This document shows, piece by piece, positions 3,426 to 29,661 of a stretch of DNA of 64,000 nt. The stretch's first letter is position 1, and every line of letters begins with the position of its first letter. Location: positions 43,337 to 107,336 of IMG/VR virus record IMGVR_UViG_3300009314_000007, one strand, 5' to 3'. The stretch is from a virus. The notes under the pieces are model-generated. The model did not search any database. It was not told where the DNA came from and was given only the letters and a program-made list of their open reading frames with translations. Made by a program: the position numbers and the translations under genes.

Positions 3426-4598
3426 ATGGCGAACAATAAGCGGCTCGCGATGATCACGGCGGATCTTCACCTGGACGATTACGCTTGGGCTGATCGACCG
3501 ACACTGTCGGGAGATTCCCGGTGGTCGTTTCAGTGGATCTGCGATAAGGCGGAGAAGTTTGGCAATCCCAGCGCGGCGAGTCCCAGCTTCTGCGTCATCG
3601 CGGCGGGGGATCTGGTCGAGAAGAAACGAAACGAGTCGGGTCCGGTCCACTTCATTCGGCGCAGGATGGAGCAATTGGAAAACGGCGATCCCAAGTCCGT
3701 GGGCTTCTACTACATTCAGGGGCAGCATGACATGCAGGATGAGCCGTGGTTCGGTTCAGCACACCGCTGGCCGGAGCATATCCACGAGCCATCTGACGGT
3801 TATTGCTATGATCTGGGCGGGTACAAGCTGTGGGGAATCGACTGGACGCCCCCAGATCGCTTGCAGGAGGCCCTGGATAGGGTTCCCGAGGACACGGATA
3901 TTCTGGTCATGCACCAGGTGTGTCACGAGTTCATGGGTTCCGTCGCGGCGCCCGAGTTGAGTTTCGACCGCATTCCGCATGCGAGGTTGCTGATCGTTGG
4001 CGACTACCACAAGCGAGTGAAGCTCGAAACACGGGGAGCCCACGGACAAAAGTTGACGGTGCTTTCTCCGGGCAGTACGAATCTGCGGGAGATCAGCGAG
4101 CAGCGGGACAAGGCGGTCTTCATGCTGTACGAGGATCTGAGTGTGAAGGTCGCGAAGATTCCCACGAGGGCGGTGATCGAGACGCCGGACCTGCTCATGG
4201 AGGAGGCGGTCGAGGATCTCCTGGAGGAACTCGATACGTTAATCGACGCCGCGCAGGTTCGGGCGGTGAAAGCCGGTTTGCCCGTGGAATTGCACAGGCC
4301 GATCATCTACGTTCGGTATCATCGACGACTGGTCGGTACGGAGCCGCGGCTACTGAAGGCCATTGACCGGCGAGCCCACCTGTTCACCAAGGTGATCGGG
4401 GAGCTGGCGGAGGGTGAGGAGGGTGAGTCCGAGGAACTCGATCTGGGTGAGGAGGGTCTCACACTTCTCGGGTGCTTGCCGGAGGAGGTGGACGAAGACC
4501 AGGAGCCGGGGGTGTTTGAAGGTCTCCAGCGACTGCTCAGCACGGACGAGCCCGCTGTGGAGTTGTCCAAGATGCGGGCGGAGCACTTGGATGCTTAG
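3426..4598 (+). CDS. sbcD: Mre11/SbcD-like metallophosphoesterase exonuclease
   Basis: ADLHL, AGDL, GQHD, MHQ, GDYH, SPGS motifs; near SbcC gene. Confidence 0.9.
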   Translation: MANNKRLAMITADLHLDDYAWADRPTLSGDSRWSFQWICDKAEKFGNPSAASPSFCVIAAGDLVEKKRNESGPVHFIRRRMEQLENGDPKSVGFYYIQGQHDMQDEPWFGSAHRWPEHIHEPSDGYCYDLGGYKLWGIDWTPPDRLQEALDRVPEDTDILVMHQVCHEFMGSVAAPELSFDRIPHARLLIVGDYHKRVKLETRGAHGQKLTVLSPGSTNLREISEQRDKAVFMLYEDLSVKVAKIPTRAVIETPDLLMEEAVEDLLEELDTLIDAAQVRAVKAGLPVELHRPIIYVRYHRRLVGTEPRLLKAIDRRAHLFTKVIGELAEGEEGESEELDLGEEGLTLLGCLPEEVDEDQEPGVFEGLQRLLSTDEPAVELSKMRAEHLDA

Positions 4599-4821: not shown

Positions 4822-5149
4822 AGGGAAGTTCGAGGAGCATACTGGCTTGGTGTTAGAGGCAGTTGTGGACGGAGCCATCGTGTTTCACGATAGCGCAGCG
4901 ATGTTCGAGCAACTCGCTGAGGAGCAACGGAGTTGGTTCGTAGCGCATGCAAGTTTACGATTGCGGTACATGTATGCGAATAAGCCCCAGTTTCGCCAGC
5001 TACTAAGAGGTTCGGGAAATGGTGGGCGGGATAGGTGCTACACGTGGGTCGAGCACTGGCTCGAAGCGTACTTGCGGGACCCGCAGGTTTATCGGGAGAG
5101 ACACTCATCTACGATGTTTGATGGGGAGGAGACAATATGCGGCTGTTGA
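4799..5149 (+). CDS. hypothetical protein
   Basis: AAGGAG RBS; overlaps start of sbcC. Confidence 0.6.
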   Translation: MPKQPISRGKFEEHTGLVLEAVVDGAIVFHDSAAMFEQLAEEQRSWFVAHASLRLRYMYANKPQFRQLLRGSGNGGRDRCYTWVEHWLEAYLRDPQVYRERHSSTMFDGEETICGC

Positions 5150-7299
5150 GTTTGGAGTTGCGGCAGATATGCCAACACGAGTCGCTTAACTGGGATTTCC
5201 AGCCAGGACTGATCGGGATCTTTGGTCCCAACGGTTCCGGTAAGTCCACCGCGATCAATGCGGGGCCGTATTTGGCCCTGACGAACGATTACGCTCGGGT
5301 CGTGGGCGGCAAGGCGGGGGCGATCCGCCAGCAGGCGGAGGCTCACGAGCTGTCCTGGGTCAAGCTCTGCGCAGAGCACCAGGGCACTGAGTTCGAGGTA
5401 AGCCGGACGCTGCAACCCGGCAGCAAGCATCGACTGGTGTGTCCGGCGTTGGAGAAACCGCTCACCAAGGCCAACGAGATTCGGGATTGGCTTGAGCGGA
5501 CGCTTGGGATGGATCGCACGCTCACCGACGATTATCTGTTTGTCGGGCAGAGCGATCTCACCGCTCCATTCAACGAGTCTTCGACGGTGCGAGCTAAGAG
5601 TTTGGCCCGGCTGTGCCGGACCACGCACGGCGAGGCGTGTTGGGAGGCCCTGGGTAAGCAGATTGAAGCTGATCGGCCGCTTGCGGGCCAGGTGATCGAC
5701 ACCTCCGATGGGATTCGCAAGCGGGTCAGTGAGTACAAGGCCAAGCTGAAGCAGGCCAAGAAGGAGAAGTCCGCAGCCAGCAAGAGGCGGCTCAAGGCGC
5801 AGGACCGCAAGATTGCGCAGAATGCTTTGGATCGACGGGCGACTCGCGACCGCTTGCTCGAAGAGCGCGTCGGGGCAAAGTCAAAAGAGACTGGGCTGCT
5901 CGAAAAGACCAAGGCGGCTTTCAGGGCGGCCCGGGAGGCGGAGCACGCCGCGGCGGTGGCCCAGGAGAACCTGACGACTGCGGAGGGTTTGGAGCGGGAT
6001 GCCGCGGAGCAGCTCAGGACGTATCGAGCCGACAAGAAGAGGTGGGAGCGGCGGCTCGCGAGGGAGACCGAGTACAACGAGCTGTCGCAGAGAGTCATAC
6101 CGTCGCCGCAGAAGCCGGATCTCCCGGATGAGGACACTTTGAGAACCAACTGGTCCGAAGCGAAAGCGGATGTGACTCGGTGGTCCAAGTGGATCGAGAC
6201 CGCCGAGGCGGGCCTGGCTGAGTGCCACGAGTGTGGTTCGGATCTGCGCGGGGACGCCGCGGCGGAGAGGCTGGCGACTATCAAGCGGGAGCTTCCGGCT
6301 CGCAAAAAGGAGGAAGAGGCTCGCCACGAGCAGCTCGCCGTGTGGCGGAGGTATAACGCGGCTCTGACCAAGGCCGCCGCCGAGACCACGGCGCACAACA
6401 AGCTACTGACCGCTGCACGTGTTGCGGCGGAAGAGTACAGCGAGGTCGAGGAGCCGGAGGAGATCAACGAGGGTCACTTACAGGCCACCGTCAGCGCGGC
6501 GGTGGCTGCTCGCATACTGTTCAGCGGCGACCCGAACGACGAGGACGACGGGGGGCTCATTGGCGCGAGCCGAGAGGCTGACGAGAAGAAGAGCGAGTTG
6601 AAGGGCAAGCACCGTGCGGCCAAGGAGCGACTCGCCGAGATCGAGAAGCAGCTCCAGGAGAATGAGGTTGGTGACGAGGAGGTCGCCGAGGCTCAGCGTC
6701 TCCTCGACATTGATGCGGAAGCGAAGCAGCAGGTTGCTGTCGCGGAGAACTCGATTGCGGTTCATCAGAACTCGATTGCGGAGCAAGAGGAAGAACTGGG
6801 GCGGGTACAGGCTTTGCTCTCCAGGAGCGGGCGGGCCCAGACTTGGTTGCGAAAACAGGAGAGAATGCGAGAGGTATTGCACCGGGACAACTTGCCCCGA
6901 CGAGTGCATCGACGAGCGCTACGTCGCATGGAAAGCGGCATAAACGAGACTTTGGAGCAGTTCGATAGTCCCTTCTGGGTGCGAACAGATGAGGAGTTGC
7001 GCTTCATAGCGCATTTCCCAAATGGTACCGTGATGCCGGGAGAAGGCCTGTCGGGCGGGGAGCAATCCGTGCTGGCGTTGGCTTACCGGTGGACTCTGAA
7101 CTCCATGTTCGCGAGTCAAATTGGTATGCTGGTGTTGGACGAGCCTACGGCTTGGATCGACGCAAGAAACTTGGACTGTCTGGAAGCGGCTCTGACCAAC
7201 CTACGGGGACTGGTGCGAGCCCAGGGATACCAAGTGATCATCATTACACACCACCAACAACTCCAGAGGGTGTTTGACCAGGTGATCACACTCGAATAA
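5137..7299 (+). CDS. sbcC: Rad50/SbcC-like SMC ATPase
   Basis: Walker A GPNGSGKS, coiled coil with central CHEC zinc hook, signature LSGGE, Walker B LVLDEP, IITH. Confidence 0.93.
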   Translation: MRLLSLELRQICQHESLNWDFQPGLIGIFGPNGSGKSTAINAGPYLALTNDYARVVGGKAGAIRQQAEAHELSWVKLCAEHQGTEFEVSRTLQPGSKHRLVCPALEKPLTKANEIRDWLERTLGMDRTLTDDYLFVGQSDLTAPFNESSTVRAKSLARLCRTTHGEACWEALGKQIEADRPLAGQVIDTSDGIRKRVSEYKAKLKQAKKEKSAASKRRLKAQDRKIAQNALDRRATRDRLLEERVGAKSKETGLLEKTKAAFRAAREAEHAAAVAQENLTTAEGLERDAAEQLRTYRADKKRWERRLARETEYNELSQRVIPSPQKPDLPDEDTLRTNWSEAKADVTRWSKWIETAEAGLAECHECGSDLRGDAAAERLATIKRELPARKKEEEARHEQLAVWRRYNAALTKAAAETTAHNKLLTAARVAAEEYSEVEEPEEINEGHLQATVSAAVAARILFSGDPNDEDDGGLIGASREADEKKSELKGKHRAAKERLAEIEKQLQENEVGDEEVAEAQRLLDIDAEAKQQVAVAENSIAVHQNSIAEQEEELGRVQALLSRSGRAQTWLRKQERMREVLHRDNLPRRVHRRALRRMESGINETLEQFDSPFWVRTDEELRFIAHFPNGTVMPGEGLSGGEQSVLALAYRWTLNSMFASQIGMLVLDEPTAWIDARNLDCLEAALTNLRGLVRAQGYQVIIITHHQQLQRVFDQVITLE

Positions 7300-7308
7300 G
7301 GTAGCTTG

Positions 7309-8367
7309 ATGGATTCTGCTCAAAGAATCGACGAACTGCGATTGCACACCGCCGGTAAAGCGATTTGGTTTAGCGAGCCGGGGCGAGACTCGTTTACGTC
7401 TCCGCTGTCTCCGGCTGAGTTTGTTCGACAGAAGGTGATTGCGGAGGCAGACTCCGTGCGCCTGCTGGGTTGCAGAGAGAACGCTCAACTGATCGTAGAG
7501 TTGCACTCACGGCGATGCGCGACGCGGAGACCTGTGAACGTGTTACTCGGGAATCCAAACTGGAGGCCGGGTAACGAAGATCGGACTGAAGATGTCTTTC
7601 ACTGCATGATGGGACAAGAGGAGTCTCCGAGTGTTGGCGGATGGCATCAACTCACCGAGAAGGATTATGTAACCTTCGCGCTCATCGCGGAGTTCGAGCA
7701 AGCAGGCGGCCAATGCACATCGCTGGTGGAGCGGTTTCTGCGCGTTCACCCGGCGTGGCCCGCCTTGTCTTTTCTGCCGGACCTGAGCAAGGTTGCGGCG
7801 TGTCGGTTGTTGACGGCGATTGTCGATCCGCGCTGGCATGTGGACCCGCACAAACCAGATCGCGATGCGAGATTGCGGAGTTTCCTTGGGCTGGGTGGCA
7901 ATGGTTTGGAAGTTGTGCAGAGTCTTCTTATGGGCGAGCCTAGTCTCGATTGGCCCCGCCGCGTAGCCCGGGCGAAGGATGTGCTCGACACATGGACTGG
8001 TGGTGACTACACGCCACCACCACAAGATGTGGTGGGCCCTTCGGGTTTTCTGTGGAGAGTGTATTATGGCGTTGCGGAAGCCAAGGATGGCTATCGGGGG
8101 ATGCTTCGCGCATGCCACGTGTTTTTGAGGTTCCTTCGCAGCGTCTGGTTGGATAGTCTGACGGCAACTCGGGTGTACGAGTCGGTTGTTCGACGTGTTG
8201 TTGATCGGCCGAGAGGCAAGCCGGATTGCCGAGAGAAGAGGCGACGGCTGTTGCCTTGCCGCGCGGGCTCTTCGACTTTGTTCTTGCCGGAGCATTTCTT
8301 TCGGTTGACGGCCGAGGTTGAGGCGTGGAGACAGCACTTGACTAGATGTCGAGGGAATACGGCTTAA
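7309..8367 (+). CDS. IS110/Tas-like Nop-domain protein, apparently lacking catalytic residues
   Basis: HPAWPALSFLPDLSKVAACRLLTAIVDPRW...LRSFLGL resembles the IS110 Transposase_20/Nop helix-hairpin region; C-terminal LRACHVFLRFLRSVW resembles the R..K.FL..LW..W helix of phage IS110/Tas-like proteins. Confidence 0.6.
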   Translation: MDSAQRIDELRLHTAGKAIWFSEPGRDSFTSPLSPAEFVRQKVIAEADSVRLLGCRENAQLIVELHSRRCATRRPVNVLLGNPNWRPGNEDRTEDVFHCMMGQEESPSVGGWHQLTEKDYVTFALIAEFEQAGGQCTSLVERFLRVHPAWPALSFLPDLSKVAACRLLTAIVDPRWHVDPHKPDRDARLRSFLGLGGNGLEVVQSLLMGEPSLDWPRRVARAKDVLDTWTGGDYTPPPQDVVGPSGFLWRVYYGVAEAKDGYRGMLRACHVFLRFLRSVWLDSLTATRVYESVVRRVVDRPRGKPDCREKRRRLLPCRAGSSTLFLPEHFFRLTAEVEAWRQHLTRCRGNTA

Positions 8368-8393
8368 CCGTTTGGTTGGGAGGGATGGCAGGG

Positions 8394-8948
8394 ATGCGCG
8401 AGCTGGGAGTTAGAATCAAGTTCATTTCAGCCTGCTTGGGTAACGTCAAGCGGGAGTGTTACGTGCGAGGTAGGAAACGCTCGCACTACTTGCTTCCGCG
8501 AAGTCCCAATGGGCAGGTGACGTTTTTGAATACCTGGTGGCAGGCGATTTTGAAGCGAGCCGCCGAGCTTCTGTGCAAGCACCACACAGAGGTGAAGAAA
8601 ATCCGTTTCGCTTTGGAGGTGGAGGGATTGTCACACCCGCTGGAGGACGTGACCGAGGAGATTGACGGCAAGAAGGTGACGACGTTACGAGGGCACTTTC
8701 ATCGGTACTACAAGGCGGATCGCTTTGCCAAACACGAAGCGTTCTTTCCCGGTTCGGTGATTGAGCTTCGGTGTATCGTGCCGCAGAAGATCAGCGACGA
8801 TGATTTTCGGCGGTTGTTGGAACTGGCTGGGAAGTATTGCGGGATCAGTCCTGCGTGTCCCAATGAGTACGGGTTTTTCACCGTCGAGTCGATTCAGTCA
8901 ACGGGACGTGGCAAGGAAAACAAAGAAAAAGAGCCGACGATCTCCTGA
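8394..8948 (+). CDS. standalone RAMP superfamily (Cas7/Csm3-like RRM) protein
   Basis: N-terminal beta strand VRIKFISACLG, helix TFLNTWWQAILKRAA, HEAFFPGSVIELRC strand, terminal glycine loop AGKYCGISPACPNEYGFFTV. Confidence 0.65.
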   Translation: MRELGVRIKFISACLGNVKRECYVRGRKRSHYLLPRSPNGQVTFLNTWWQAILKRAAELLCKHHTEVKKIRFALEVEGLSHPLEDVTEEIDGKKVTTLRGHFHRYYKADRFAKHEAFFPGSVIELRCIVPQKISDDDFRRLLELAGKYCGISPACPNEYGFFTVESIQSTGRGKENKEKEPTIS

Positions 8949-9055
8949 GCAAAGGAATCGTCGGCTCCGTGCGGCAAGTGCCGGACCGTGGTGTTTTTCC
9001 CCACACACACGGAAATTTTACGGTTCTTCGCTGTGCATGCAACCCCTGGTAGGGG
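8931..9055. other. three-hairpin structured region over RAMP stop codon and spacer (candidate ncRNA, processing site or terminator)
   Basis: GAGCCGACGAT 8931-8941 pairs perfectly with ATCGTCGGCTC 8957-8967; CCGTGGTGT/ACACACACGG 8986-9012; CCCCT/AGGGG 9043-9055. Confidence 0.5.
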
Positions 9056-9072
9056 ATTTGGAGTATGCGAAT

Positions 9073-10593
9073 ATGGCGAAAGTCTCGGTGAGGATAAGGA
9101 AGGATGGCGGCCTTCTCGCGATTGATAGTCCGAGCGAGACCGTTTTCGGCATTTTGACCGAAGCTCTTTCCTACACAAGAGTTGTGCAGCTTCGTGGCAA
9201 GGAGGCGAAGATGCACGGGAGTAACGTGAAGACGGTTCCGATTGCCTGTTACACCTACACACCCTCACGAGAGGGGTTTCAGGCTCGGCTTATTACGAGC
9301 AGCGGTTTTCTCTGGACCGTGGCCCGCGTGCTTCGCGAGCACGGTTACCGTCCGGTGGTTAAGGACGAGCGGCCGGAGGACGCCAAGAAGTTCAAGCCCG
9401 CTTGGCAGCGCTTGCGGCGGGTGGACTGGCGATACAAGCAGCGATTCTGCATCGACCAGATGCTCAAGTATTCGTGCGGGCGGATTGACTGCCCGCCGGG
9501 GTACGGCAAGAGCTATTTGATGCGGCTGTTTTGCCAGTTACTGCCGGGTGCTACGACAGTGGTCTCCACCCACTCCACCGACGTGCTGGAGCAGATCCAC
9601 GACGAGCTGTCCAAAAGCATTCCCCGGGTGGGGCTGATCTACGGCAAGCGGAAGATCGAGGGAGATGGTATTCACGTGGTGTCGGGCAAGTCGCTGCATC
9701 GTGTGGATTGGCCGACAGATATTTTGTTGGTGGACGAGGTTCACGAGTGGGCCACGGACGATTATCTGCGTCGTGTTGGCGCGAAGTCATTTCAGAACGC
9801 TCGCAAGTACGGGTTCAGTGCCAGCCAGGCGCATCGGATGGACCTGGCTCATTTCGAGTTGGAAGGTCCGTTTGGCCCAGTGATCGCGAAGGTCTCGTAC
9901 CAGAAGGCCGTGGAGCACGGGTGTGTCGTGCCGATACAGATCTGGTGGCGAAGCGTGAACCTGCGCGGCAACCCGGCGGAGGGCGTGAAGAATCCGGTCG
10001 AGAGAGACCGGTGGGGCTTGTGGACTAATGGGGCCCGGAATCAGCTCATCGCGGAGGACGCTCGGCAGTTCGACGAGAACGATCAAGTGTTGATCGCCGT
10101 GGAGACTATCGAGCACGCGATGAATCTCAAACGATTCTTGCCGGAGTTTTCTGTTTGTCACAGTGAGCATGGGCTCTCGGACGAGGATCGTTTGTGGTAC
10201 GTCACCAACGGGTTTATCCAGCCAAATGAGCCGCGTATGACTGCGGAGCGCCGGTACAAGCTCAAGAAAGCCTTTGAGGATGGACGGTTGAAGAAGGTGA
10301 TTGCGAATAGCGTGTGGAAGCGCGGTGTGGACTTCAAGCAACTGGCGGTGCTGATTCGTGCTGACGGGAAGAACAGCGCTATTTCTGACACACAGATTCC
10401 GGGACGGACTTCCAGGATCTGCGATGCAACCGGAAAGGAGTTCAGCGTCGTTGTTGACTACCTCGACGAGTTCGACGACCGTTTGCACGGGCGAGCGCTC
10501 GACAGGGCGTCGAACTACTGTGCGAATGGCTGGAAGCAAGTTCAGCCGAGAACGAGAGAAGACAGCAGACAGGGGCGACTGTTCAATGAATGA
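9073..10593 (+). CDS. superfamily 2 DExH helicase (UvsW/XPB-like)
   Basis: CPPGYGKS, LVDEVH, GFSAS, RGVDF, QIPGRTSR motifs. Confidence 0.9.
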   Translation: MAKVSVRIRKDGGLLAIDSPSETVFGILTEALSYTRVVQLRGKEAKMHGSNVKTVPIACYTYTPSREGFQARLITSSGFLWTVARVLREHGYRPVVKDERPEDAKKFKPAWQRLRRVDWRYKQRFCIDQMLKYSCGRIDCPPGYGKSYLMRLFCQLLPGATTVVSTHSTDVLEQIHDELSKSIPRVGLIYGKRKIEGDGIHVVSGKSLHRVDWPTDILLVDEVHEWATDDYLRRVGAKSFQNARKYGFSASQAHRMDLAHFELEGPFGPVIAKVSYQKAVEHGCVVPIQIWWRSVNLRGNPAEGVKNPVERDRWGLWTNGARNQLIAEDARQFDENDQVLIAVETIEHAMNLKRFLPEFSVCHSEHGLSDEDRLWYVTNGFIQPNEPRMTAERRYKLKKAFEDGRLKKVIANSVWKRGVDFKQLAVLIRADGKNSAISDTQIPGRTSRICDATGKEFSVVVDYLDEFDDRLHGRALDRASNYCANGWKQVQPRTREDSRQGRLFNE

Positions 10594-11281
10594 GCCGCGG
10601 AGAAGAACTCGGAGGCCGCGTCAATCGCTGGTGGAGGATCTGGCCCAAGCGGTGCGGACTGAGTACATCAACCAGCGGAGGATGTGGCGGTGTTTGTCCG
10701 GCAGCCGTCCGGATTACTTGCCGGGCAGGCAATGGGACGAGGGCAGGCGGCTGGAGAGTGGCAGGTACTCACTACCGGTCTGGCCGAAGATTGCCCAGTT
10801 CTTGCTCGACAACGAGATTGTGGACTACCCGGAGTTCATACGGAAGATCTTCGAGAACAGGGGGCCGCACCGGCCGGTTCCTCAGCCGAATCACCTGCAT
10901 GGTCCGGCAGCCTTGAGAATTTGGAAGGAGGTAATACCCAAGAAAGAGTTGCGAGCCCGGGTGAGACAGGCCTGGGCGCAAGAGAAAAAGGCGTTTGCGA
11001 TAGCGGCGCTCGATCAGCAGGCCTATTTCCCCGATGCTTCCGAGCACGAGTGCCTGCGGTCGGTAATTGTGGACGACACAGTGAGCCTCTCGCCGCTGTA
11101 TCGTTATTGTGTGGCGATTGGTGAGGGCCTGCCCCGCCACGCATCGTTCTACAAGGAAATGGCCTTACGGCAATACTGTCTCGCACCGTCGCTCTACGAC
11201 GAAGTGTGGGGCGGTTGGATTCCTGAGCAACTGAAAACAGAAGCCGAAGCGATGCGACTGTCGCTTCCGGAGGATCACTGA
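10586..11281 (+). CDS. hypothetical protein between helicases (possible replication accessory factor)
   Basis: Translationally coupled on both sides; function inferred from position only. Confidence 0.65.
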   Translation: MNEPRRRTRRPRQSLVEDLAQAVRTEYINQRRMWRCLSGSRPDYLPGRQWDEGRRLESGRYSLPVWPKIAQFLLDNEIVDYPEFIRKIFENRGPHRPVPQPNHLHGPAALRIWKEVIPKKELRARVRQAWAQEKKAFAIAALDQQAYFPDASEHECLRSVIVDDTVSLSPLYRYCVAIGEGLPRHASFYKEMALRQYCLAPSLYDEVWGGWIPEQLKTEAEAMRLSLPEDH

Positions 11282-13005
11282 TGCCAAAGAAACGTGAGGT
11301 ACAGAAGACACGGGTTCCCCTCAAAGCCGGGGAGAAATCTGTTTTGTTTGCTACGCTCATTCGACAGCCGGAGGCGTTCGAGGCGGCGCAGTCGATACTG
11401 AGTTACGAGCAGATCGCCGAGGTTGATCGGATGTACGCCGTCGTGTGGCAGGTAGTCTGCGACTACTACGCTGAGAACGATAGGCTGCCGGAAGAGCACT
11501 ACGTGCAGACCGGGCTTTCGAGGTTCCTGGCGGAAGACCCGGACGTGCTGACTGACAAGGAGCAGACAAAGCTGGCCGCCTTCTTGGGGTTTGCTTTCGA
11601 TACTCCGGTGGAATCGCTTAGACCCAGGATGGGCGAGAGGTATCTGTCGAAGTACATGGAGGATCGGCTTGCGGACGAGATGCGGTCACGGCTGACGGGT
11701 TACACGCCTGTCAACATCTACGAGCTATTTCAGGACGCGGTGGCTCGAACGGAAGATCTGACCGTGGTGGGCTCCGCGACCCTTCCGGATGCGTTCGAGG
11801 ACGACTGGCTGGAGGAGAACGAGTTCCTTGATCTTCGGGACACCGGGATAGACTTCATCAACCGATTTCTGGGTGGGGATGATGAGGACGAGGCGGAGTT
11901 GGTGGGATTCGGGCATGGCTGCACAGAATCCTTTGGACTGCTCGGTCCGTATGGTGGTGGAAAGACGACCACTGGGGTAATGCTCAGCACTATGGGCGCC
12001 AAGCTGGCTTATAACGCCTGGGAGCAAAGCGGTGGGACAGGCCCGCTGCGGTTGTCGTACCACTTCACATGGGAAGAGCCTAAACCGTCCTTACGCTTGC
12101 GGGCGCTGGCGTTCCTGGCGGAGGTGCCGCACAAGCGGATCAAGCTGGCGGTCAAGCAGAAGGATCTCCAGGGCGTGCTTAGTAACAGCGACACCCTGCT
12201 GGACTACGAGCAGACGAGATACGCTCACAAGATCCGGGCGGGGGAGGCTGTGGGGGGCGAATACGAGAGGGTCCGGCGGGCTATTGAATTGCTGAATGCG
12301 TGTTGGAGGGTGGTCGATCTAACTGGCAGCGACAAGTCGTTGGGGCTTCGAGGGACGAACCTGGTTGACGAAGTGGCAGCCGTTATCCGTAAGGACCAGC
12401 GGAAAGTTCGTCATGCCCACAGTGATTTTCCGACTGGCGTGCAGATGGTGGTCGCAGATTACGTGGGCGCCGCGGCGGAAAAGCACCTCGATGCAAACGG
12501 GATGGACCACGGTTCAAACCTGCGGCACATTATCAACCGCTGGCCGCTGCACATGAAGACCAAAGTCGCCGTGCCGTTTTTCTGTCCTGTGTGGTCGCTA
12601 CACCAGTTGAGCACGCAGGCGAACACACTGATGGCGGGGAGCGTTCCCAAGTACACCGACTCGGCAGAGGGTAAAGCGTTTGCCGAGAACCTGGACTTTT
12701 GTGTGATGTACGGGATGAAGGACAGTGACGACCGGATGGTGTGTACTTGCAACAAGGCTCGGCGGGAAGCGGCCATGCCGCCGATCATTGTGCGGCTGCG
12801 GGGCGCCCAGCAGAGAGTTGTGGACGACTCGTCGAATTACACACTCAAGAGTCGTAGGATTACGTCTCGCACACTTGCGGAGACTGTGCAGGGAGGGGCC
12901 TCGCCTGCGGCGCCGACAGATGATGAGGGGCAATCGCCCAACGAGATTCAGCGGCAGAACCAGGATGTAAGGGGTCGCCGCGCAAGAGGAGCGCGTACTA
13001 TATGA
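11281..13005 (+). CDS. dnaB: DnaB-like (SF4) replicative helicase
   Basis: Walker A GPYGGGKTT, VVADY, LHQL, AENLD, KAR; directly upstream of primase. Confidence 0.85.
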   Translation: MPKKREVQKTRVPLKAGEKSVLFATLIRQPEAFEAAQSILSYEQIAEVDRMYAVVWQVVCDYYAENDRLPEEHYVQTGLSRFLAEDPDVLTDKEQTKLAAFLGFAFDTPVESLRPRMGERYLSKYMEDRLADEMRSRLTGYTPVNIYELFQDAVARTEDLTVVGSATLPDAFEDDWLEENEFLDLRDTGIDFINRFLGGDDEDEAELVGFGHGCTESFGLLGPYGGGKTTTGVMLSTMGAKLAYNAWEQSGGTGPLRLSYHFTWEEPKPSLRLRALAFLAEVPHKRIKLAVKQKDLQGVLSNSDTLLDYEQTRYAHKIRAGEAVGGEYERVRRAIELLNACWRVVDLTGSDKSLGLRGTNLVDEVAAVIRKDQRKVRHAHSDFPTGVQMVVADYVGAAAEKHLDANGMDHGSNLRHIINRWPLHMKTKVAVPFFCPVWSLHQLSTQANTLMAGSVPKYTDSAEGKAFAENLDFCVMYGMKDSDDRMVCTCNKARREAAMPPIIVRLRGAQQRVVDDSSNYTLKSRRITSRTLAETVQGGASPAAPTDDEGQSPNEIQRQNQDVRGRRARGARTI

Positions 13006-14132
13006 CAATTGAGGTGCTCAACCCGGCTCTTTACGGCGGGCTGGTCCGTCGTTATGGGCGGGAATCTATTGAGATCGTCGCACCTGGCGAGCGCATCGAA
13101 TGGTCGGTGCGTAAAACGCGGCCGGGCGAGGCGGGAGAGCTGAAGCGCGAGGTGGAGCATTCCGGTGAGGAGTATCGGATGCGGTGTCCGTTTTGTAAGG
13201 ATCACCGTCCGAGACTCTATGTCAATCACCGGTTTGGTGTGGAGGACCCGCGAACGGGCTTGCTCAACTTGTGGCTCGCGCAGTGCTTTAACGAGCGGTG
13301 CTTTGAGGATTACGAGAACTGCGAGCTGTTTTGGGATTCCGTTTACTCGATTTCACGGGACATGGCGGGGACCATACGGATTGGAGAGGGGAAGAAGGCG
13401 TCGAGCGAGGTTCGGGAGGTGGCGCCACCAGGTCCAATGTGGCGACTTGACGAGTTGGCAAGAAACCATCCAAACCACCACGCGGTGCAGTACCTGGCGG
13501 GCAGGCATTTCGATCCCGGTAAGATTGGGAGGCTTTGGGGTGCCGCGTACTGTCCGCGGGCCCATGTGTACAACATGGCGTCCGACAAGATCATCATCCC
13601 GATTTACTGGCGGGGCGAGATGGTTGGCTGGCAGGCTCGATACATCGGAGATGACGTGAAGGGCGTGCCGTTCAATAAGGCAGGCGTGGCCAAGTATTGG
13701 TCGTCCCCGGGCTTCAAGCGGAGTCGGGTGGCTTACAATTTTTGGAGAGCAGTGCAACACCCCACTGCGGTTATCGTGGAGGGCATGACCGATGTATGGA
13801 GCATGGGCATGCAGTCGATGGGTGTATTTGGAAAGACAATGAGTGCCCCGCTTCGGCGATTGTTGTTGCAGGAGATGTCGGATAGGCATCGGCCGGAGGA
13901 GGCGGTGATCGTCATCTTGCTGGACCCCAAGAAGGATAAGAAGGACAAGGTTCACCACATTGAGAGACTGTATGGACAGCTTGCGAATCAGGGAGCGGCT
14001 GTCCGCGTGCTGAAAGTGTATCTTCCCCCGGAAGTGGACCCGGGGAGTAGCGAGCGTGCGTGGTTGCGAGACTACATTCGCGAGAAAGCAGACGAGGTAG
14101 GTTACCCCGTCAGTTTTAGGAAACCGACATGA
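13002..14132 (+). CDS. dnaG: DNA primase (Zn finger + TOPRIM)
   Basis: CPFCKDH...CFNERC zinc finger, GWQAR, KY, IVEGMTD, LLD. Confidence 0.88.
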   Translation: MTIEVLNPALYGGLVRRYGRESIEIVAPGERIEWSVRKTRPGEAGELKREVEHSGEEYRMRCPFCKDHRPRLYVNHRFGVEDPRTGLLNLWLAQCFNERCFEDYENCELFWDSVYSISRDMAGTIRIGEGKKASSEVREVAPPGPMWRLDELARNHPNHHAVQYLAGRHFDPGKIGRLWGAAYCPRAHVYNMASDKIIIPIYWRGEMVGWQARYIGDDVKGVPFNKAGVAKYWSSPGFKRSRVAYNFWRAVQHPTAVIVEGMTDVWSMGMQSMGVFGKTMSAPLRRLLLQEMSDRHRPEEAVIVILLDPKKDKKDKVHHIERLYGQLANQGAAVRVLKVYLPPEVDPGSSERAWLRDYIREKADEVGYPVSFRKPT

Positions 14133-17100
14133 CAAAAGAACGCAGAAAGCTGATTCGCAAAGGAGGCCCCGGGCTTGCCGCGAAGACGAAAGAGCCGGTC
14201 ACCACTAACGTTATTGGAGAGGCTGACAAGAAGCCGAAGAAGAAAGCGGTGTTGGCGAAACGTAGGGACCAGCCAGCTCCGACGAGGTCCCGGCAACCCG
14301 CCGGAAATCTGTTTCCTTTGAACGCTCCGGGGATGCCGCTACCTGGCCCGGACTTGTTGGAGTACGCCGCGGCGCTTGGCGGAACTCACGAGATAGTCGG
14401 GAAGAGCCGAAGCGCTCGCCTGACGCAGGCGGGTCAGACGCTGCCAGCCCTATTCAGGAAGATCCTTTATTCGTTTGGCGACATAGCCGTCCCGTTTAAG
14501 CACAAAGGTAAGCGTCACGACTTGTCGGTGGTAAGTGGCCACGTGTGGGGAGATCCGTTTGGAGAGTGCCGCGGGCCTCGTCAGGCGGACGTGATGGTGA
14601 TCGCCAAGATGCTTGGTGACGAAGAGAACAATCAGGGAAGGAACATGATCGGCAACTCCGGGCAGTTATTTCTGGAGACCTGTCGAGAGCTGGGACTCCC
14701 TCGGATTTCTCGCTGGTACGTTACCAACCTGATGAAGACCCTGCATCCGGAGGCGGATTCCGGGGGCACGAGATTGACTGCGGCGATGATCAAGGAGTGG
14801 CTACCGTTTCTGCACCAGGAGATCCGTATCGTGCAGCCCAAGTACATTCTGTGCTTGGGGGCTGATGCGAGCGCGGGTCTGTTGGAGTACGAGGGCGGGT
14901 TCAAGAGAAAGGACAAGTTCCGAGCCTCGATCAGTAACATGCAGGGCCGCATTGTCGAGTGGGAGTACCCGATCAGTCGCAAGGATGAGGGCAAGATCCA
15001 GTACAAGCAGGCACTGGTCATGTCCATCACGCATCCCGCCGCCGTGCTGCACGCCCCTGAGCAGGAGGACGTGTACGTCAACGGCGTAGCCAGGTTCGGG
15101 CAGATGATCAAGGGAATGCGGTGGGACAAGGAGGAGGAGGGTCTTGATCACAGGACGATTACTTCGCTCGTCGAGTTGAAAGAGCTGTACCACGAGATCA
15201 GAGCGGACTGCGAGGATAACTTGCTCGGGATCGACGCCGAGTGGCACGGGGATCACCCGCAGAACAAGGGCAGCTACCTGCGCACTATACAGATTTCCTG
15301 GAAGCACAAGGCCGCGGTCTGCATCAGGCTACGTGCCCCAGGCGGTGCCTGGGCTTTCGCGGGGTGCGGCCGAAAGACTGTCGCGAAATGGGTTAAGAGG
15401 ATTTGTAAGGGAAGGAGGCTCGCAGGGCACTTCTTCTCTGCCGACCTCGAATGGCTGATCGACTTCGGTATTGATCTTCGCGAGGAGTTCATGGTCCCGG
15501 ACACTTGGACGGAGTACATGAAGCGGTGGCGGCGTAAGAAGGGTTGCGGGTTCGATACTGGTCTAGCCGCACACGGCATAGCAGAGACCGACGATTTCAG
15601 CCTAACATCACTCACGCTGCGACATACGACTGCTCCTCGTTACGATGTAGCGCTGGTGAAGTGGGTTGCGGATTACTGCAATGAGCACAAGCTGAAGAAG
15701 GAGGAGCTGGAGGGTTATGGGGAGTGTCCTGACGATGTGCTGATTCCCTACGGCATCTACGATGCCGACGTGACTCGGCGAATCGCGGTGAAGTTCGCTA
15801 GGAGGTTATTCAAGGATCGTTTCAACAACAACTGCTGGGAAGCGTTCTGGATGTCCATGCGGGCCCAACCGGCAGCTTTGGAGATGAATATGAGCGGCGT
15901 GCAGATCGACCGGGAGCGACTTGATCGTCTCACGGAGACCTACATGTCGGCCAAGGCCAAGCTGGAGAACACAGTGCGCACTTGGGCTCGGTGGCCCGAT
16001 ATGAATCTGAACTCGGTGTTTCATATTCGCGAGTTTCTCTACGGGGAGCGGTACAATGGGCACGAACACCCTGAGGGTACACCTCCCATTAGGAAGCGTC
16101 CGGCAGACGGCAGGTCCCTGAAGCTCAATCCGATCCTCACTACGGATAAGCGGCCCATGCGGTGGTCCGAGGTGGTGCAGAAGGGATTGGAAGACCAGAA
16201 GACGCCGAGCACGGACAAGATGTGCCTGGCCATCTTGGCGCAGGACAATCAGGCGGTCCGGAAATGGCACCCTACGAAGCTGGATTACCGTACGTACGAT
16301 TTCAGCAAGCAGGTCACCTGGGTTCGGGATTACCGGTTCATCAGTCAGGTGCTCAAGAGCATGCTGAGGACTCCGAAGATCGAGAAGCTGCCGGACAAGA
16401 CCGAGGCGTTCTTGAAGAAAGACGACTACTACGTCTACCCTGGCGGGCTCCCCGCCGCGGTTTGCGACGATAGCCGGGTGCGAACCCACTTCTATCAAAC
16501 CAAGGAGACCGGTCGATGGGCCTCGGCCCGTCCGCCGCTGCAAAACCTGACTAAGCGAAGGGAGGTGGATTACAAGCGGATTCTGGGTCCAGATTACAAG
16601 TGGGCACTTAGGACTATCATTACGGCTCGGCCGGGGCACTTGCTTCTGGAGGCGGATATTACCGGCGCCGAGCTGGCGGGCATGGCGATTATGTCTGGCG
16701 ACAAGAGGATGATCGAGCACGCGCAGAGAAACGTGCTGGCGGAAGACGATCCCAATTACTACGACATCCACAGCCACGTTGCCGTGCTGGCGTTCCGCTT
16801 GGACTGTGAGCCCACCAAGGGCGGTCTGGAATTGATTGGGATGAAGCACATGCGGCTCGTGGCCAAGAGTGTGATCTTCGGTATCGCTTACGGGCGGGGA
16901 GCCAAGGCCATCGCGTTGGCTGCGAAGGAGGAGGGAGTCAATATCACGGTCGAGGAAGCGCAGCGGGTGATCGACACGATCTTCCGGATGTACCCGAGAC
17001 TGGTGCCGTTCTTCGAGGCTTGTCGTGCTCGCTCCAGAGATCCTCGGTGGATCTGTGGTTGTCTTGGTCGTTTTCGTCGTTTCCCGGTTGCCCGAGAATG

Positions 17101-17578
17101 GGTAGTCCAGGGCGACTTCGAGCGACAGGCGATGAACTTCCCGATGCAGAACATGGTGGCAGATGTAATGAGCAGGGTTGTGGATCACCTGTATCATTAT
17201 CGAGAAGAATACCCGGACGTGACCTATCGCATGGTGGCGCAGATTCACGACGCGGTGTTGTTGGAGGTTCCGTACGCGCATGTGTCGCGTGTGATCGACG
17301 AAGTGATTCCCGAGTGCATGGTCAATCGCGTACCGATCTACCCGTGTACGCTGGACGGAATGCCGACAGGTAAGGGCCCCTACTATTTCGGTGCGGACAT
17401 CGACCCGTATCATCGGTGGGGGCAGGATATGGCTCCGGATGAGTGCATGAAAATTGGACTCGATCCGAAGTACGCGCACTGGACGCAGACCGCGAATGGT
17501 TATCTGCATCCAGAGAAGAAAGACAAGATTTGGGTTGGGGACATCCATGGAGGAGAACTTGTGTCTCTGGCGCCCTAA
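14129..17578 (+). CDS. polA: family A DNA polymerase with N-terminal uracil-DNA-glycosylase-like domain and 3'-5' exonuclease
   Basis: UDG-4-like G.SGQL...YVTNLMK...EIRIVQPKYILCLG...THPAAVL; exo IDAEW and YGIYDAD; TGRWAS.PPLQN, ADITGAEL, RLVAKSVIFGIAYG, NFPMQ, IHD. Confidence 0.93.
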   Translation: MTKERRKLIRKGGPGLAAKTKEPVTTNVIGEADKKPKKKAVLAKRRDQPAPTRSRQPAGNLFPLNAPGMPLPGPDLLEYAAALGGTHEIVGKSRSARLTQAGQTLPALFRKILYSFGDIAVPFKHKGKRHDLSVVSGHVWGDPFGECRGPRQADVMVIAKMLGDEENNQGRNMIGNSGQLFLETCRELGLPRISRWYVTNLMKTLHPEADSGGTRLTAAMIKEWLPFLHQEIRIVQPKYILCLGADASAGLLEYEGGFKRKDKFRASISNMQGRIVEWEYPISRKDEGKIQYKQALVMSITHPAAVLHAPEQEDVYVNGVARFGQMIKGMRWDKEEEGLDHRTITSLVELKELYHEIRADCEDNLLGIDAEWHGDHPQNKGSYLRTIQISWKHKAAVCIRLRAPGGAWAFAGCGRKTVAKWVKRICKGRRLAGHFFSADLEWLIDFGIDLREEFMVPDTWTEYMKRWRRKKGCGFDTGLAAHGIAETDDFSLTSLTLRHTTAPRYDVALVKWVADYCNEHKLKKEELEGYGECPDDVLIPYGIYDADVTRRIAVKFARRLFKDRFNNNCWEAFWMSMRAQPAALEMNMSGVQIDRERLDRLTETYMSAKAKLENTVRTWARWPDMNLNSVFHIREFLYGERYNGHEHPEGTPPIRKRPADGRSLKLNPILTTDKRPMRWSEVVQKGLEDQKTPSTDKMCLAILAQDNQAVRKWHPTKLDYRTYDFSKQVTWVRDYRFISQVLKSMLRTPKIEKLPDKTEAFLKKDDYYVYPGGLPAAVCDDSRVRTHFYQTKETGRWASARPPLQNLTKRREVDYKRILGPDYKWALRTIITARPGHLLLEADITGAELAGMAIMSGDKRMIEHAQRNVLAEDDPNYYDIHSHVAVLAFRLDCEPTKGGLELIGMKHMRLVAKSVIFGIAYGRGAKAIALAAKEEGVNITVEEAQRVIDTIFRMYPRLVPFFEACRARSRDPRWICGCLGRFRRFPVAREWVVQGDFERQAMNFPMQNMVADVMSRVVDHLYHYREEYPDVTYRMVAQIHDAVLLEVPYAHVSRVIDEVIPECMVNRVPIYPCTLDGMPTGKGPYYFGADIDPYHRWGQDMAPDECMKIGLDPKYAHWTQTANGYLHPEKKDKIWVGDIHGGELVSLAP
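14203..14216. repeat. dispersed palindrome copy 2 (CACTAACGTTATTG), inside polymerase CDS
   Basis: One mismatch to copy 1; flanked by C/G extension. Confidence 0.85.
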
Positions 17579-17679: not shown

Positions 17680-19668
17680 GTGAGTAAGAAGAAAACGACG
17701 AAGAAGAAAGTAGCCAAGGCAGCCGTGAAGACGCGAGTGCCCGGGGCTCCCAAGGCAAGGAAGCGGACCAGGGACGCGCAGAAGGGCATGACGGCGCCGA
17801 CGCTCGCCCCGCCGGACGACCGCACGCTGATGCGTGCAGGAGGGCGGTTGCCGCATGGTGGCACGGTGCCGGAGGTGCAACTGTTGCGGCCCTCCTGGAA
17901 GGATGGGCACATGATCGTGCGGCCCTTGCCGACGTGGAATCCCATGAAGCCCGGCGAGGAGCTGGACCCGATTCGGAAGAGCGCCGAGCCGAATGGTTTC
18001 CGCGATTGGATTCGGGAAGTCACGGCTGTGTCCTATTGGGGCTCGGACGACGATGCGGTCACCTTCCTGTTGTACGACAAGGAGAACAGCACGCCGGACG
18101 AGTGGAGGGTCAATCCGGCCGTCGTGTTGTTTAGGGCGGTCAACGCGATAGCGAATCCGCAGAAGCCCACTTCGCAGTCGAAGTACATCGCGAAGTGGGC
18201 GAAGCTGATTGTGGGCAGCAAGAGGCTCATCAGCCCGCCCACGTCGTTGCTGTTCATGGGTGGCCTGGTGTTCAAGCGGGGCAACGACGTGTACTTCGGC
18301 AAGGACGCCCTGCGCGTGCCGGTGGGTTTGGCAGACGACGACGCCCCGCCGATCATCCAGCTCAAGGGCTCGCCTCGTTTCAAGGGTTCCTTGGTGTATC
18401 GTGTCAAGGAGGCCCTCAACGCACTCAATCCCGAGTGGGAGGGGGACCTGAGCGACTGGGAGAACTCGATGCTCCATGGCGACGTGGTGGCTCCGGAGCA
18501 CGGGCGATTCCTGACCATTTACAACCCGAAGGCCGAGGGTTTTCTGGCGAAGTCCGACGGGGACGACGACGATGACGACGGCGAATTCGGTGTGGGTGGT
18601 CAGGGTGATGGTTCGCGAGGCAAGAAGGACGACGCCGAGGATATTCAGGGCTACCAGGTTCGTGTGGACAGGCACCTCCACCGCAACGGCAAGCTGCTGA
18701 AGAAGACGGCGACACTGGAGGACTCGTCCAAGGGTCCGTTCTTGACCACGGCGAAGCGGCAGATCGTTTTCCTGGACGATATTCTGTACTTCCCGAGTGT
18801 CGAGGAGCAGTGCTTGCTGATCGCCAGGGCCCTGCGGCATTATCGGGAGCTGGTCGAACTTGGTTGGCAGCGACACCCGGAGTTTCTCACCGACGAGGTG
18901 CGGGCGGTGTTGGCCGACGCTACGCAGGCTGCGGTTGGTGGGGACGTTCCGGAAGACGAGGAGGGCGACGACGAGGCGTTGGACGAAAGCCTGACTCCGG
19001 GTAGCCGCGAGCGCCGACGTTCTGCCGGGGTCCCCGCGGCTGAAGTCGAAGAGGCCGAAGCCGAGGAGGGCGACGACGAGTACGAGACGGTCGAAGAGAT
19101 CGACGCCGAGGGCGAAGACGAGGCCGAAGTCGCCGAGGGTGAGGAGGGCGACGAGCTTGAAGAGGACGAAGAGTACGAGGTGGTGGAAGTCGAGGAGGAG
19201 GTCGAAGTCGCCGAGGGTGAGGAGGGCGACGACGAGGAGGGCGAGGAGGCTGAAGCCGAAGACGAGGAGGTCGAAGCCGAGGCTGAGGAAGGCGACGACG
19301 AGTACGAGTTCGAGGAGGTCGAAGTCGATGAGGAGGACGAGGCTGCGGAGGAGGGAGAGGACGCTTCCGACGAATACGAGGACCCCTCTGATGTAGACGA
19401 CGAGGAGTACGAGGAGGTGTCGGAAGAGGAGCCCGAAGCGGAGGCTGAGGAGCCCGATCCGGACGAAGAGAACTTCCAGGAGCTTGCTGAGCAGGCGGAA
19501 GCGAGATCGGCTGCTCGTAAGGCCCCGGCGGCGAAGAAAAAGGGCGCGCCGAAGAAGAAGAAGGCCGCATCGAAGGCCACATCGGAGGCCGCACCGAAAA
19601 AGAAGGTGGTCAAGAAGAAGGTGGTCAAGAAGGCTCCTCCGAGCCGCAAGAAGAAGAAGAGCAGCTAG
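17680..19668 (+). CDS. putative ssDNA-binding/recombination mediator protein with long acidic disordered region and Lys-rich termini
   Basis: GGAGG RBS + GTG; lies between polymerase and RecA; globular core followed by >150-aa Glu/Asp tract and H1-like tail; SSB role inferred from position. Confidence 0.55.
   Translation: MSKKKTTKKKVAKAAVKTRVPGAPKARKRTRDAQKGMTAPTLAPPDDRTLMRAGGRLPHGGTVPEVQLLRPSWKDGHMIVRPLPTWNPMKPGEELDPIRKSAEPNGFRDWIREVTAVSYWGSDDDAVTFLLYDKENSTPDEWRVNPAVVLFRAVNAIANPQKPTSQSKYIAKWAKLIVGSKRLISPPTSLLFMGGLVFKRGNDVYFGKDALRVPVGLADDDAPPIIQLKGSPRFKGSLVYRVKEALNALNPEWEGDLSDWENSMLHGDVVAPEHGRFLTIYNPKAEGFLAKSDGDDDDDDGEFGVGGQGDGSRGKKDDAEDIQGYQVRVDRHLHRNGKLLKKTATLEDSSKGPFLTTAKRQIVFLDDILYFPSVEEQCLLIARALRHYRELVELGWQRHPEFLTDEVRAVLADATQAAVGGDVPEDEEGDDEALDESLTPGSRERRRSAGVPAAEVEEAEAEEGDDEYETVEEIDAEGEDEAEVAEGEEGDELEEDEEYEVVEVEEEVEVAEGEEGDDEEGEEAEAEDEEVEAEAEEGDDEYEFEEVEVDEEDEAAEEGEDASDEYEDPSDVDDEEYEEVSEEEPEAEAEEPDPDEENFQELAEQAEARSAARKAPAAKKKGAPKKKKAASKATSEAAPKKKVVKKKVVKKAPPSRKKKKSS
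19126..19231 (+). repeat. acidic-tract DNA segment shared with 38944-39043
   Basis: gaagtcgccgagg..gaggagggcgacgagcttgaagaggacgaagagtacgagg and gtcgaggaggaggtcgaagtcgccgagggtgaggagggcgacg occur in both places. Confidence 0.85.
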
Positions 19669-19714
19669 AGGAAGCGCAGCTAGAGTTACTATCCCGCTTG
19701 GTTGTCCGCTCCAC

Positions 19715-19751
19715 GCCCGCCCCGGTCACACGGGGCGGGCTGGGGTCTTTT
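19715..19751 (+). terminator. GC-rich hairpin, possible terminator/processing site
   Basis: GCCCGCCCCG/CGGGGCGGGC 10-bp stem; only a short, displaced T run. Confidence 0.5.
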
Positions 19752-19764
19752 CCAGGAGATGCAC

Positions 19765-28976: not shown

Positions 28977-29034
28977 ATCTCGGGCTTGTAGGATGCTCTT
29001 TTTGTTGGTAAGATCGTCGGTGGAGGTATCAATA

Positions 29035-29661
29035 ATGGTGCTACGACGATACTCGAAAACGAGACCCGGGCAGCGACGGTGCGCTAGACGAGTCGCGAAG
29101 GCTTGCCAGGCTCGGAATGGTTGGTGGCCCATCTCGGTTTATGCCGCGAGCAGCACGAACAAGGATGGACTGCACTCGTATTGTCCCGAGTGTCGAAAAC
29201 ACTTGGTAAGGGCGTACAAGAAGAAAAACCGCGAGAAGCTCTCGCAGTATCAGCGAGAGTGGCGGGCAAGGAACCCGGAAAAATACCAGCAGCTTCAGGA
29301 TAAACATCACGCGGAGAACAGAGAGGCCCAGCGAGCGTATACGCGAGCATATAAAAAAGCGAACCCCGTGCGGAATCGTTCGTGGAATAGGGCTCGCAGA
29401 CTCCGCTTCGCGGTCGCAGGGCGGCTGACCGATAGCGACTGGGAGGAGGTGTTGCAGAGATATGGCCGTGATTGTCTTTGTTGCGGTGTTGGCGAGGGCA
29501 TCACTATTGATCACGTCGTACCAGTTCCCGCAGGTCCGAATGACAAGAGCAACGTGCAGCCGCTTTGTCGTGGTTGCAATAGTAGCAAGGGTCGCAAGGA
29601 GACAGACTATCGGTTCGATGGAGGACGGCATTTCGGAAATCAAGGTGACGAACCCGATTAG
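29035..29661 (+). CDS. HNH endonuclease (McrA-like zinc HNH)
   Basis: CLCC...TIDHVVP...NVQPLCRGCNSSKG; N-terminal CPEC; GGAGG RBS. Confidence 0.88.
   Translation: MVLRRYSKTRPGQRRCARRVAKACQARNGWWPISVYAASSTNKDGLHSYCPECRKHLVRAYKKKNREKLSQYQREWRARNPEKYQQLQDKHHAENREAQRAYTRAYKKANPVRNRSWNRARRLRFAVAGRLTDSDWEEVLQRYGRDCLCCGVGEGITIDHVVPVPAGPNDKSNVQPLCRGCNSSKGRKETDYRFDGGRHFGNQGDEPD

Follow-up and report, generated by a model that had tools for sequence, protein, structure and literature searches.

The window analyzed here is a 64,000-nt stretch of viral DNA, corresponding to bases 43337-107336 of the 107,336-base IMG/VR virus record IMGVR_UViG_3300009314_000007, which was estimated by CheckV to be ~51% complete. 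Two adjacent genes in this window, referred to below as A and B, lie between a Rad50-type ATPase gene and a superfamily 2 (SF2) helicase gene. Structural modeling indicated that A has the architecture of TasR proteins with a RuvC-like domain that lacks catalytic acids, and that B is a minimal Cas7-like RAMP, for which a profile comparison also suggested a remote link to Vipr, while the spacer that follows them is better read as the site of a small-RNA gene on the opposite strand. The initial annotation had placed A, B, and the helicase at these positions, all on the plus strand, and had proposed that they might form an undescribed ribonucleoprotein (RNP); the placement was confirmed, and the proposal is examined below. 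The locus contains the following features:

7309-8367, plus strand: gene A, TasR/IS110-fold protein with a RuvC-like N-domain and a Nop-like C-domain (AF2 model, VIA matches)
8394-8948, plus strand: gene B, minimal single-RRM RAMP, Cas7/Csm3-like and Vipr-like (AF2, Foldseek, VIA, hhalign)
about 8922-9008, minus strand: predicted small RNA of ~84 nt, with a 5′ hairpin, a small second hairpin, and an 11-bp GC stem (promoter and terminator)
9015-9042, minus strand: sigma70-like promoter (TTGCAT, 16 nt, TAAAAT)
9073-10593, plus strand: SF2 DExH helicase

The starts of A and B were supported by homologues. The N-terminus of A (MDSAQR...) is common to a relative of 66% identity, and B begins with MRE, which is invariant in 19 of 19 homologues. 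Public gene calls start late in both genes, which shortens the products to 253 aa (A) and 143 aa (B), and homologues back the forms of 352 and 184 aa used here. The gene downstream of the spacer, which is found directly downstream in relatives as well, matched Pfam Helicase_C and ResIII and phrog_16, and contains a DEVH box, in agreement with its earlier description as a DExH helicase.

Gene A showed little similarity to known proteins at the sequence level. No Pfam or PHROG match was obtained, the family profile retrieved no PDB chain at E ≤10 except for one chance match, and no useful neighbour was found in the ESM Atlas. An AF2 model built from an alignment of 27 members reached a predicted local distance difference test score (pLDDT) of 90.3. 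Foldseek returned only weak rows for this model, with IS621, ISCro4, and TasR among them. The VIA structure search, which is independent of Foldseek, gave TIGR-TasR (9mty_B) as the best match (Z 11.1, 238 residues aligned, model residues 8..341), followed by TasH, which matched the C-terminal domain only (Z 8.9, model residues 120..344). IS621 (Z 7.9, 241 residues aligned) and ISCro4 (Z 7.4) were the only other proteins matched over the full length, and the remaining lower VIA rows covered only the N-terminal RNase H/RuvC-like fold. With regard to the coiled-coil dimerisation scaffold of TasR proteins, the longest helix of the model spans 24 residues (261-284).

Within residues 1-112 of A, no alignment column contained more than 63% Asp or Glu and no conserved acidic residue was present, nor was there an invariant Ser in the family alignment. 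Conservation is concentrated in the Nop-like domain and is lowest in the RuvC-like one. The invariant residues are W112, at the domain boundary, and H147, D173-P-R-W176, G194, W229, W280, and F325 in the Nop-like domain; the conserved motifs HPAWPALSF and IVDPRW likewise belong to the C-domain. As modeled, A is thus a protein of TasR architecture whose RuvC-like domain has lost its catalytic acids; it is neither a transposase nor a nuclease. The reading of A as a Nop-domain protein of the IS110/Tas type without a recognizable RuvC DEDD or catalytic Ser was upheld. It also shows no character of an insertion sequence, since A is single-copy in the 107-kb record, holds a fixed operon position, and is, as had been noted, flanked by no element ends. 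The A family is very large, comprising 1,057 clusters at 50% identity (E ≤1e-3).

Gene B was assigned more readily by structure, and its identification as a single Cas7/Csm3-like RAMP with a Gly-rich loop was borne out. The AF2 model (pLDDT 84) gave 53 Foldseek matches at E ≤1e-3 (E 3e-5 to Csm3/Cmr4/Cas7), and those shown were all CRISPR RAMPs, named as Csm3, type VII Cas7, Cmr, Csf2, and Cas7-11. The top 19 VIA rows were also CRISPR RAMPs without exception, with Z scores from 11.0 to 7.8 (11.0 for 9g9a_G, 10.6 for 6s6b_I, and 10.2 for Csm3, 6ae2_B), and the best matches in BFVD were viral RAMPs (E 4e-7). Sequence profiles recovered far less; no Pfam family matched, including RAMPs, PHROGs gave only a weak match to phrog_4652, and the PDB profile search returned nothing. 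Conservation in B falls on helix 1 (W48, W49, A56, and A57) and on the Gly-rich loop, in which G146, G150, S152, P153, and G160 are invariant. In the structure of the VIPR complex, helix 1 together with the G-loop provides the main RNA surfaces (10.64898/2026.04.26.720927).

The relation of B to Vipr was assessed using a family profile built from the Vipr protein of phage SUSP1 (KT454805; a 195-aa gene at 28474-29061). The two families were aligned by hhalign in a stretch of 113 columns that begins at helix 1 and ends with the last strand; the E-value was 7e-6 and the probability 84.4%, a suggestive value that stays under the customary bar of 90-95%. The residues that read the GGY repeats in SUSP1 are H17, R138, D177, W178, and R179, of which the N-terminal ones lie outside the stretch aligned by hhalign. 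The positions of D177 and W178 are occupied in B by the invariant P153 and by the small residue A154. Judged from these alignments, B is a Vipr-like or Cas7-like minimal RAMP, which should not read GGY repeats, because D177 and W178 are replaced.

The gap between B and the helicase gene (8949-9072) is exactly 124 nt and rich in hairpins, as described previously. The structure was confirmed on the minus strand, where the predicted small RNA folds with an energy of -41.5 kcal/mol (z -4.8). The 11-bp GC stem (8931-8967) straddles the stop codon of B and is preceded on the plus strand by AAAGAAAAA; read on the minus strand, it is therefore a hairpin that runs into TTTTTCTTT, which is the form of a standard intrinsic terminator. 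The last residues of B (E-P-T-I/T-S, codons 8931-8948) are conserved in close relatives even though they form a disordered tail (pLDDT <50). Since these codons make up one arm of the terminator stem, their conservation may be imposed by the RNA gene. The promoter is conserved in three relatives of 72-91% identity (L025-L027), in which the two small hairpins between promoter and terminator vary in sequence but keep their pairing. Among four relatives, five base pairs were maintained by double changes.

The same signature was found across the wider family. Among 32 distinct spacers, a promoter-like site was present on the minus strand in 27 and on the plus strand in one, whereas shuffled sequences gave 1.7 on average and never more than 6, and random stretches of the same loci scored 8%. 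Promoter and terminator occurred together in 27 of the 32 spacers, and the RNAs predicted from them are 63-118 nt long, with a median of about 80 nt. The spacers have only 32% identity in a global alignment of all of them, and no Rfam match was found for the predicted small RNA. Judged by these sequence features, a small-RNA gene that is antisense and has its own transcription describes the spacer better than a coding-strand scaffold does. The minus-strand small-RNA signature is new here for this window.

The initial annotation saw no guide array in the window, and this absence was found to extend to the rest of the 107-kb record. The window contains no non-coding tandem or interspaced repeats and no CRISPR- or TIGR-like array, all of its repeats being low-complexity coding tracts, and the record contains no match to Pfam RAMPs or Cas1. 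A scan of the whole record for YNNGG (VIPR-type) units was empty on both strands. As a positive control, a scan for 5-nt units ending in GG recovered all four tracts of SUSP1 (L063, KT454805), which lie on the minus strand in 27619-27969 and 29165-29234 and flank the two-gene locus at 28031-29061; the one tract upstream and three downstream match the published description of the vrRNA. The 32 distinct spacers also showed no 5-nt periodicity of G (lag-5 value of 0.009, compared with 0.26 in SUSP1). With the scan empty and no lag-5 periodicity, a VIPR-type guide was rejected for the record and the spacers. In five relatives that are 89-100% complete, the array scans gave only sparse short matches, and the sole one inspected lay inside a long coding open reading frame (ORF). 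Exact repeats of the spacer elsewhere in the genome were at chance level (8 seen versus ~8 expected for 11-mers). A separate candidate, a tigRNA inside the variable insertion of A (8150-8300), was rejected because its fold was not significant (z -1.8).

The remaining genes of the recombination and replication set, all on the plus strand, are:

3426-4598, plus strand: SbcD/Mre11-like gene, located upstream of Rad50 in relatives (phosphoesterase-like motifs DLH, GDL, GQHD, and GDYH, read by eye)
5137-7299, plus strand: SbcC/Rad50-type ATPase (Pfam SMC_N and AAA_23; phrog_77, SbcC-like)
11281-13005, plus strand: DnaB-like helicase, after small ORFs behind the SF2 helicase
13002-14132, plus strand: primase
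14129-17578, plus strand: family A DNA polymerase with a fused uracil-DNA glycosylase (UDG) domain
19702-21210, plus strand: UvsX-like recombinase

The order SbcD-like, SbcC, A, B, helicase, DnaB-like, primase, PolA was conserved in 22 of 23 viral loci, and the remaining locus, which is cut upstream, keeps it from SbcC onward. The shorter order A-B-helicase was found in all 23 viral loci, and both the long and the short order hold in nearly all metagenome loci with context. A and B keep a fixed operon order across 33-91% identity. The relatives that carry the module are uncultured phages of 180-235 kb; nothing similar to it was found among GenBank phages by DNA search or tblastn. A and B had been described as lying between Mre11/Rad50 and the replisome. 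Of this, the Rad50 assignment was verified by Pfam and phrog_77, whereas that of Mre11 relies on the motifs read by eye, the gene at 3426-4598 having no Pfam or PHROG match.

The three elements can be found apart. When distinct loci were collected by anchoring on the helicase, 30 had both A and B, 14 had A only, one had B only, and six had neither; the RNA signature was present in 23 of the 30 A+B loci, 4 of the 14 A-only loci, and 1 of the 6 with neither. The signature was more common in the presence of B (23/31 versus 5/20; Fisher p 0.0012, for loci that are not phylogenetically independent). In three divergent loci (L049, L051, and L055), B is present without a detectable A upstream. In another (L113, 3687-4199), B is replaced by an unrelated small helical ORF, and the minus-strand promoter and terminator remain. 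A further locus (L111) lacks both A and B and still carries the RNA signature, at 4265-4366, in the interval from Rad50 to the helicase. The two genes and the small RNA are associated but separable, and because A and B each occur alone in some relatives, an obligate three-part RNP is not supported. The expected linkage of the pair in relatives is thus real, the genes keeping the same order in every viral locus, but it is not obligate.

Several other features of the region were observed. The polymerase gene encodes an N-terminal domain of the UDG superfamily (Pfam UDG, residues 149-312) ahead of its exonuclease and polymerase domains. Two small unannotated ORFs lie at 10590-11283, between the SF2 helicase and the DnaB-like gene. 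Through its terminal TGATG the second one overlaps the start of the DnaB-like gene, an arrangement suggestive of translational coupling. Two distant genes (18931-19464 and 38905-39140) contain long Glu/Asp-rich tracts that form one 72-nt repeat family of 26 copies, and the first of these tracts is within a 741-aa gene just past the polymerase. Lys-rich coding repeats with a period of 15 nt (AAGAAGAAG) are present in two genes, at 24209-24367 and 19836-19907, and resemble histone-H1-like tails.

Possible pairing targets of the small RNA were sought in the leaders of the two helicase genes. By construction, the predicted RNA matches the SF2 helicase leader perfectly in the antisense direction. 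For the DnaB-like gene, the leader was taken as -120..+20, and the background was the frequency of an equal complementary stretch in windows of the same size. In a first set of loci, the longest complementary stretch in this leader was rarer than 5% of windows in 9 of 24; in the helicase-anchored set, complementarity at a background of ≤0.05 was found in 14 of 25 distinct loci, the two sets overlapping in part, with some loci from the same contigs. The matching words vary by lineage (GTGTAGCGG, CGGTGTGTT, AATTGGCTT, and a 14-mer in L019/L073), and the pairing sites group in either of two ranges, roughly -9 to -34 and -46 to -88. Sliding RNAduplex energies in the window were too noisy to single out a target. 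In the window itself, one site was noted:

11221-11230, plus strand: tentative small-RNA pairing site, 10-nt match TCCTGAGCAA, -60 from the DnaB-like gene (background 0.02)

This match is weak on its own, and weaker than those of some relatives.

Good support exists for both folds and the loss of catalytic residues, for the synteny and the lack of an array, and for the small-RNA signature of promoter, terminator, and structure. The explanation that we favor, though with a confidence somewhat short of even, is that A is a nuclease-dead, arrayless relative of TasR and IS110 and B a minimal RAMP of Vipr and Cas7 kinship, both of them fixed accessory genes of a replication/recombination operon, which would form a non-cutting, fixed-RNA module regulating the replication genes of the phage itself. 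A and B would still hold RNA; jointly or each on its own, they would work with a fixed RNA encoded by the phage, not with a programmable array, and would make no cuts. The adjacent small RNA would be the best candidate for that RNA, and the module may tune the expression or timing of the replication genes. Three considerations lead to this proposal: every characterized relative of A and B is an RNA-guided DNA binder or repressor; the conserved surfaces of both proteins are those that bind RNA in their relatives; and a conserved small RNA complementary to helicase leaders adjoins them. From these we infer RNA binding by A and B, contact between the two, use of the small RNA, and its target. Prediction of the A+B complex gave no verdict for or against contact (score 0.00, compared with a mark of 0.32).

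A number of observations weigh against this proposal. The likeness of A to Tas proteins is one of structure, with no similarity to any of them detected at the sequence level. B is missing from 14 distinct loci that have A, and A from a few that have B. There is no room for the small RNA in 10 of the 14 A-only loci and in at least four A+B loci, and in one locus the RNA signature is present although both genes are absent; the counts over the relatives also lack phylogenetic independence. The DnaB-leader match of the window is short (10 nt), falls in the terminator loop, and lies inside a coding region, and a DNA site that is common to two leaders and bound by a protein could account for the repeated motif equally well. 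A more specific version, in which A, B, and the antisense small RNA would constitute a fixed-guide RNP drawn from the TIGR-Tas and VIPR/CRISPR lineages, recognizing the DNA or mRNA of the phage at its helicase genes or origin, and thereby coupling RNA-guided recognition to the start or timing of replication, is quite unlikely in our view.

The main rival to a fixed-RNA module is guide-free domestication, in which A and B would be accessory factors that bind DNA structures (ends, branches, single strands, or primers) during recombination-dependent replication, together with SbcCD, a UvsW-like SF2 helicase, and UvsX, and the small RNA would be an unrelated regulator. We consider this possible but rather unlikely. 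Such a role would suit the fixed place of the genes between SbcC and the helicase in a T4-like recombination/replication gene set, the match of the RuvC/RNase H-like fold of A to junction resolvases as well (Z 6-7), the lack of an array, and the occurrence of A and B each alone and without the small RNA. Conservation points the other way, as the domain shared with resolvases is the least conserved part of A, the invariant motifs are in its Nop-like domain, and B conserves the RNA-binding surfaces of RAMPs. Some relatives with the same replication genes also lack both A and B, indicating that neither is a core part of the replisome, which counts against a guide-free role. Less likely still is that the small-RNA promoter serves as a replication origin, with its transcript forming an R-loop whose RNA-DNA hybrid is held by A and B and later removed by the SF2 helicase. 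In the R-loop model of T4 oriF and oriG, UvsW carries out such removal at the T4 origins. The window has a short divergent transcript unit inside the replication module beside an SF2 helicase, and relatives of A and B do build RNA-DNA hybrids on double-stranded DNA, but the cumulative GC skew climbs steadily and does not turn near 9 kb, neither an AT-rich unwinding element nor iterons were seen in the window, and the predicted transcript stops at a strong terminator after ~84 nt, all of which render an origin improbable.

It could also be supposed that the locus is a true programmable system of the TIGR-like or VIPR-like kind, whose array is located in the part of the genome missing from the record, about half, or is so degenerate that the scans overlook it. 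The record is only 51% complete, TIGR arrays lack sequence conservation and can occupy flexible positions, and VIPR guides can degenerate to NNNNG repeats. Nevertheless, the scan that recovers all four SUSP1 vrRNA tracts found none in the 107-kb record, the spacers have no lag-5 periodicity of G, and the 89-100% complete relatives yielded only sparse short matches; in addition, B is without the GGY-reading D177 and W178 of Vipr, and the module belongs to a vertically fixed operon gene set rather than to defence-island cargo. A hidden array accordingly has a low probability. Catalytically dead phage copies of defence-system folds are a known counter-defence theme, and A and B might be decoys that mimic host RAMP or Tas subunits, soaking up crRNAs or tigRNAs or poisoning effectors. 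B, as a lone backbone-type subunit, could be imagined in such a role. This alternative is very improbable, since the genes keep a fixed order within a replication operon across 33-91% identity, unlike variable early or accessory regions, and sequence searches detected no similarity to any cellular cas gene.

Whichever of these holds, the locus represents dead TasR-fold proteins that are fixed in phage replication operons and make up a very large family, with more than 1,000 clusters at 50% identity. Many of them have a Vipr/Cas7-like RAMP as partner, and a conserved predicted small-RNA gene adjoins them. If a fixed RNA is used, RNA-guided machinery would have been re-used for control of the virus's own genome, rather than for conflict; if no RNA is used, the locus would show the domestication of guide-binding folds into DNA metabolism.

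Among known systems, the closest to A is TIGR-TasR (TaTasR, PDB 9MTY; Faure et al. 2025, PMC12045711), the best structural match, which shares with it a RuvC-like N-domain and a Nop-like C-domain, a length of ~300-350 aa, and a phage origin. The RuvC catalytic residues are also absent from PateTasR and CsTasR, and because such dead TasRs are known, the missing acidic residues of A do not exclude it from the TasR family. A differs from TIGR-Tas in that no TIGR array or box C/D-type unit was found and in being fixed in a replication/recombination operon beside a RAMP gene. A divergent tas clade without an array or coiled coil was described from dense viral genomes (Xu et al., 10.64898/2026.09.09.750476), and A resembles it in both the absence of an array and the dense viral genome. 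In that study, the role of the arrayless compact TasRs was left open and the question was raised whether they draw on another source of RNA; the present locus is a concrete case for this question. The setting of A beside a RAMP gene in a replication operon is mentioned in neither TIGR-Tas paper, and the words RAMP, Cas7, and helicase do not occur in PMC12045711. The IS110 recombinases that use a bridge RNA (IS621 and ISCro4) share the full-length fold over ~240 residues (Z 7.4-7.9), whereas A has no conserved DEDD or Ser, is single-copy in fixed synteny, and has no element ends.

For B, the nearest parallels are Vipr, the RAMP of the VIPR systems of phage SUSP1 (10.64898/2026.04.26.720920, 10.64898/2026.04.26.720927), and the Cas7-group RAMPs. 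Like Vipr, B is a phage-encoded, minimal single-RRM RAMP of ~190 aa with a G-loop and no CRISPR array, and is adjoined by a predicted non-coding RNA gene and by DNA-acting genes. The vap accessory genes of VIPR are described as DNA binders, nucleases, and helicases; the genes that adjoin B are A and the SF2 helicase. The differences are that no GGY/NN (YNNGG) tandem-repeat RNA is present in the record, that the neighbouring RNA is on the opposite strand with a hairpin-linker-terminator layout, and that B is located in a replication operon, whereas Vipr is in a two-gene conflict locus. The VIPR paper makes no mention of Nop, TIGR, IS110, RuvC, or replication, and no paper naming TasR, RAMP, and phage together was found in the literature searched. 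The Cas7-group RAMPs (Csm3, Cmr4, Csf2, and type VII Cas7) are the best matches of B among solved structures (Z 8-11) and share its RRM core, β-hairpin insertion, and Gly-rich loop ahead of the final strand; most Cas7 proteins are larger than B, which lacks a Pfam RAMPs match, and, unlike class 1 CRISPR loci, the record has no cas1, other cas genes, or CRISPR array.

The predicted RNA is most similar to base-pairing small RNAs with Rho-independent terminators, the trans- and cis-antisense sRNAs of bacteria and phages. Like them, it has a sigma70-like promoter of its own, a comparable length (63-118 nt), and complementarity to mRNA leaders, and its layout is also theirs: the loop of the 5′ hairpin is exposed, a linker follows as a single strand, and the terminator is strong and carries a U tract. 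It differs from them in having no Rfam entry, in its tail-to-tail arrangement with a RAMP gene, and in a terminator stem that encodes the last codons of B. Finally, gene silencing by RNA-guided binding, as carried out by dead TasR/TasA and by VIPR complexes, would be a parallel to the module proposed here.

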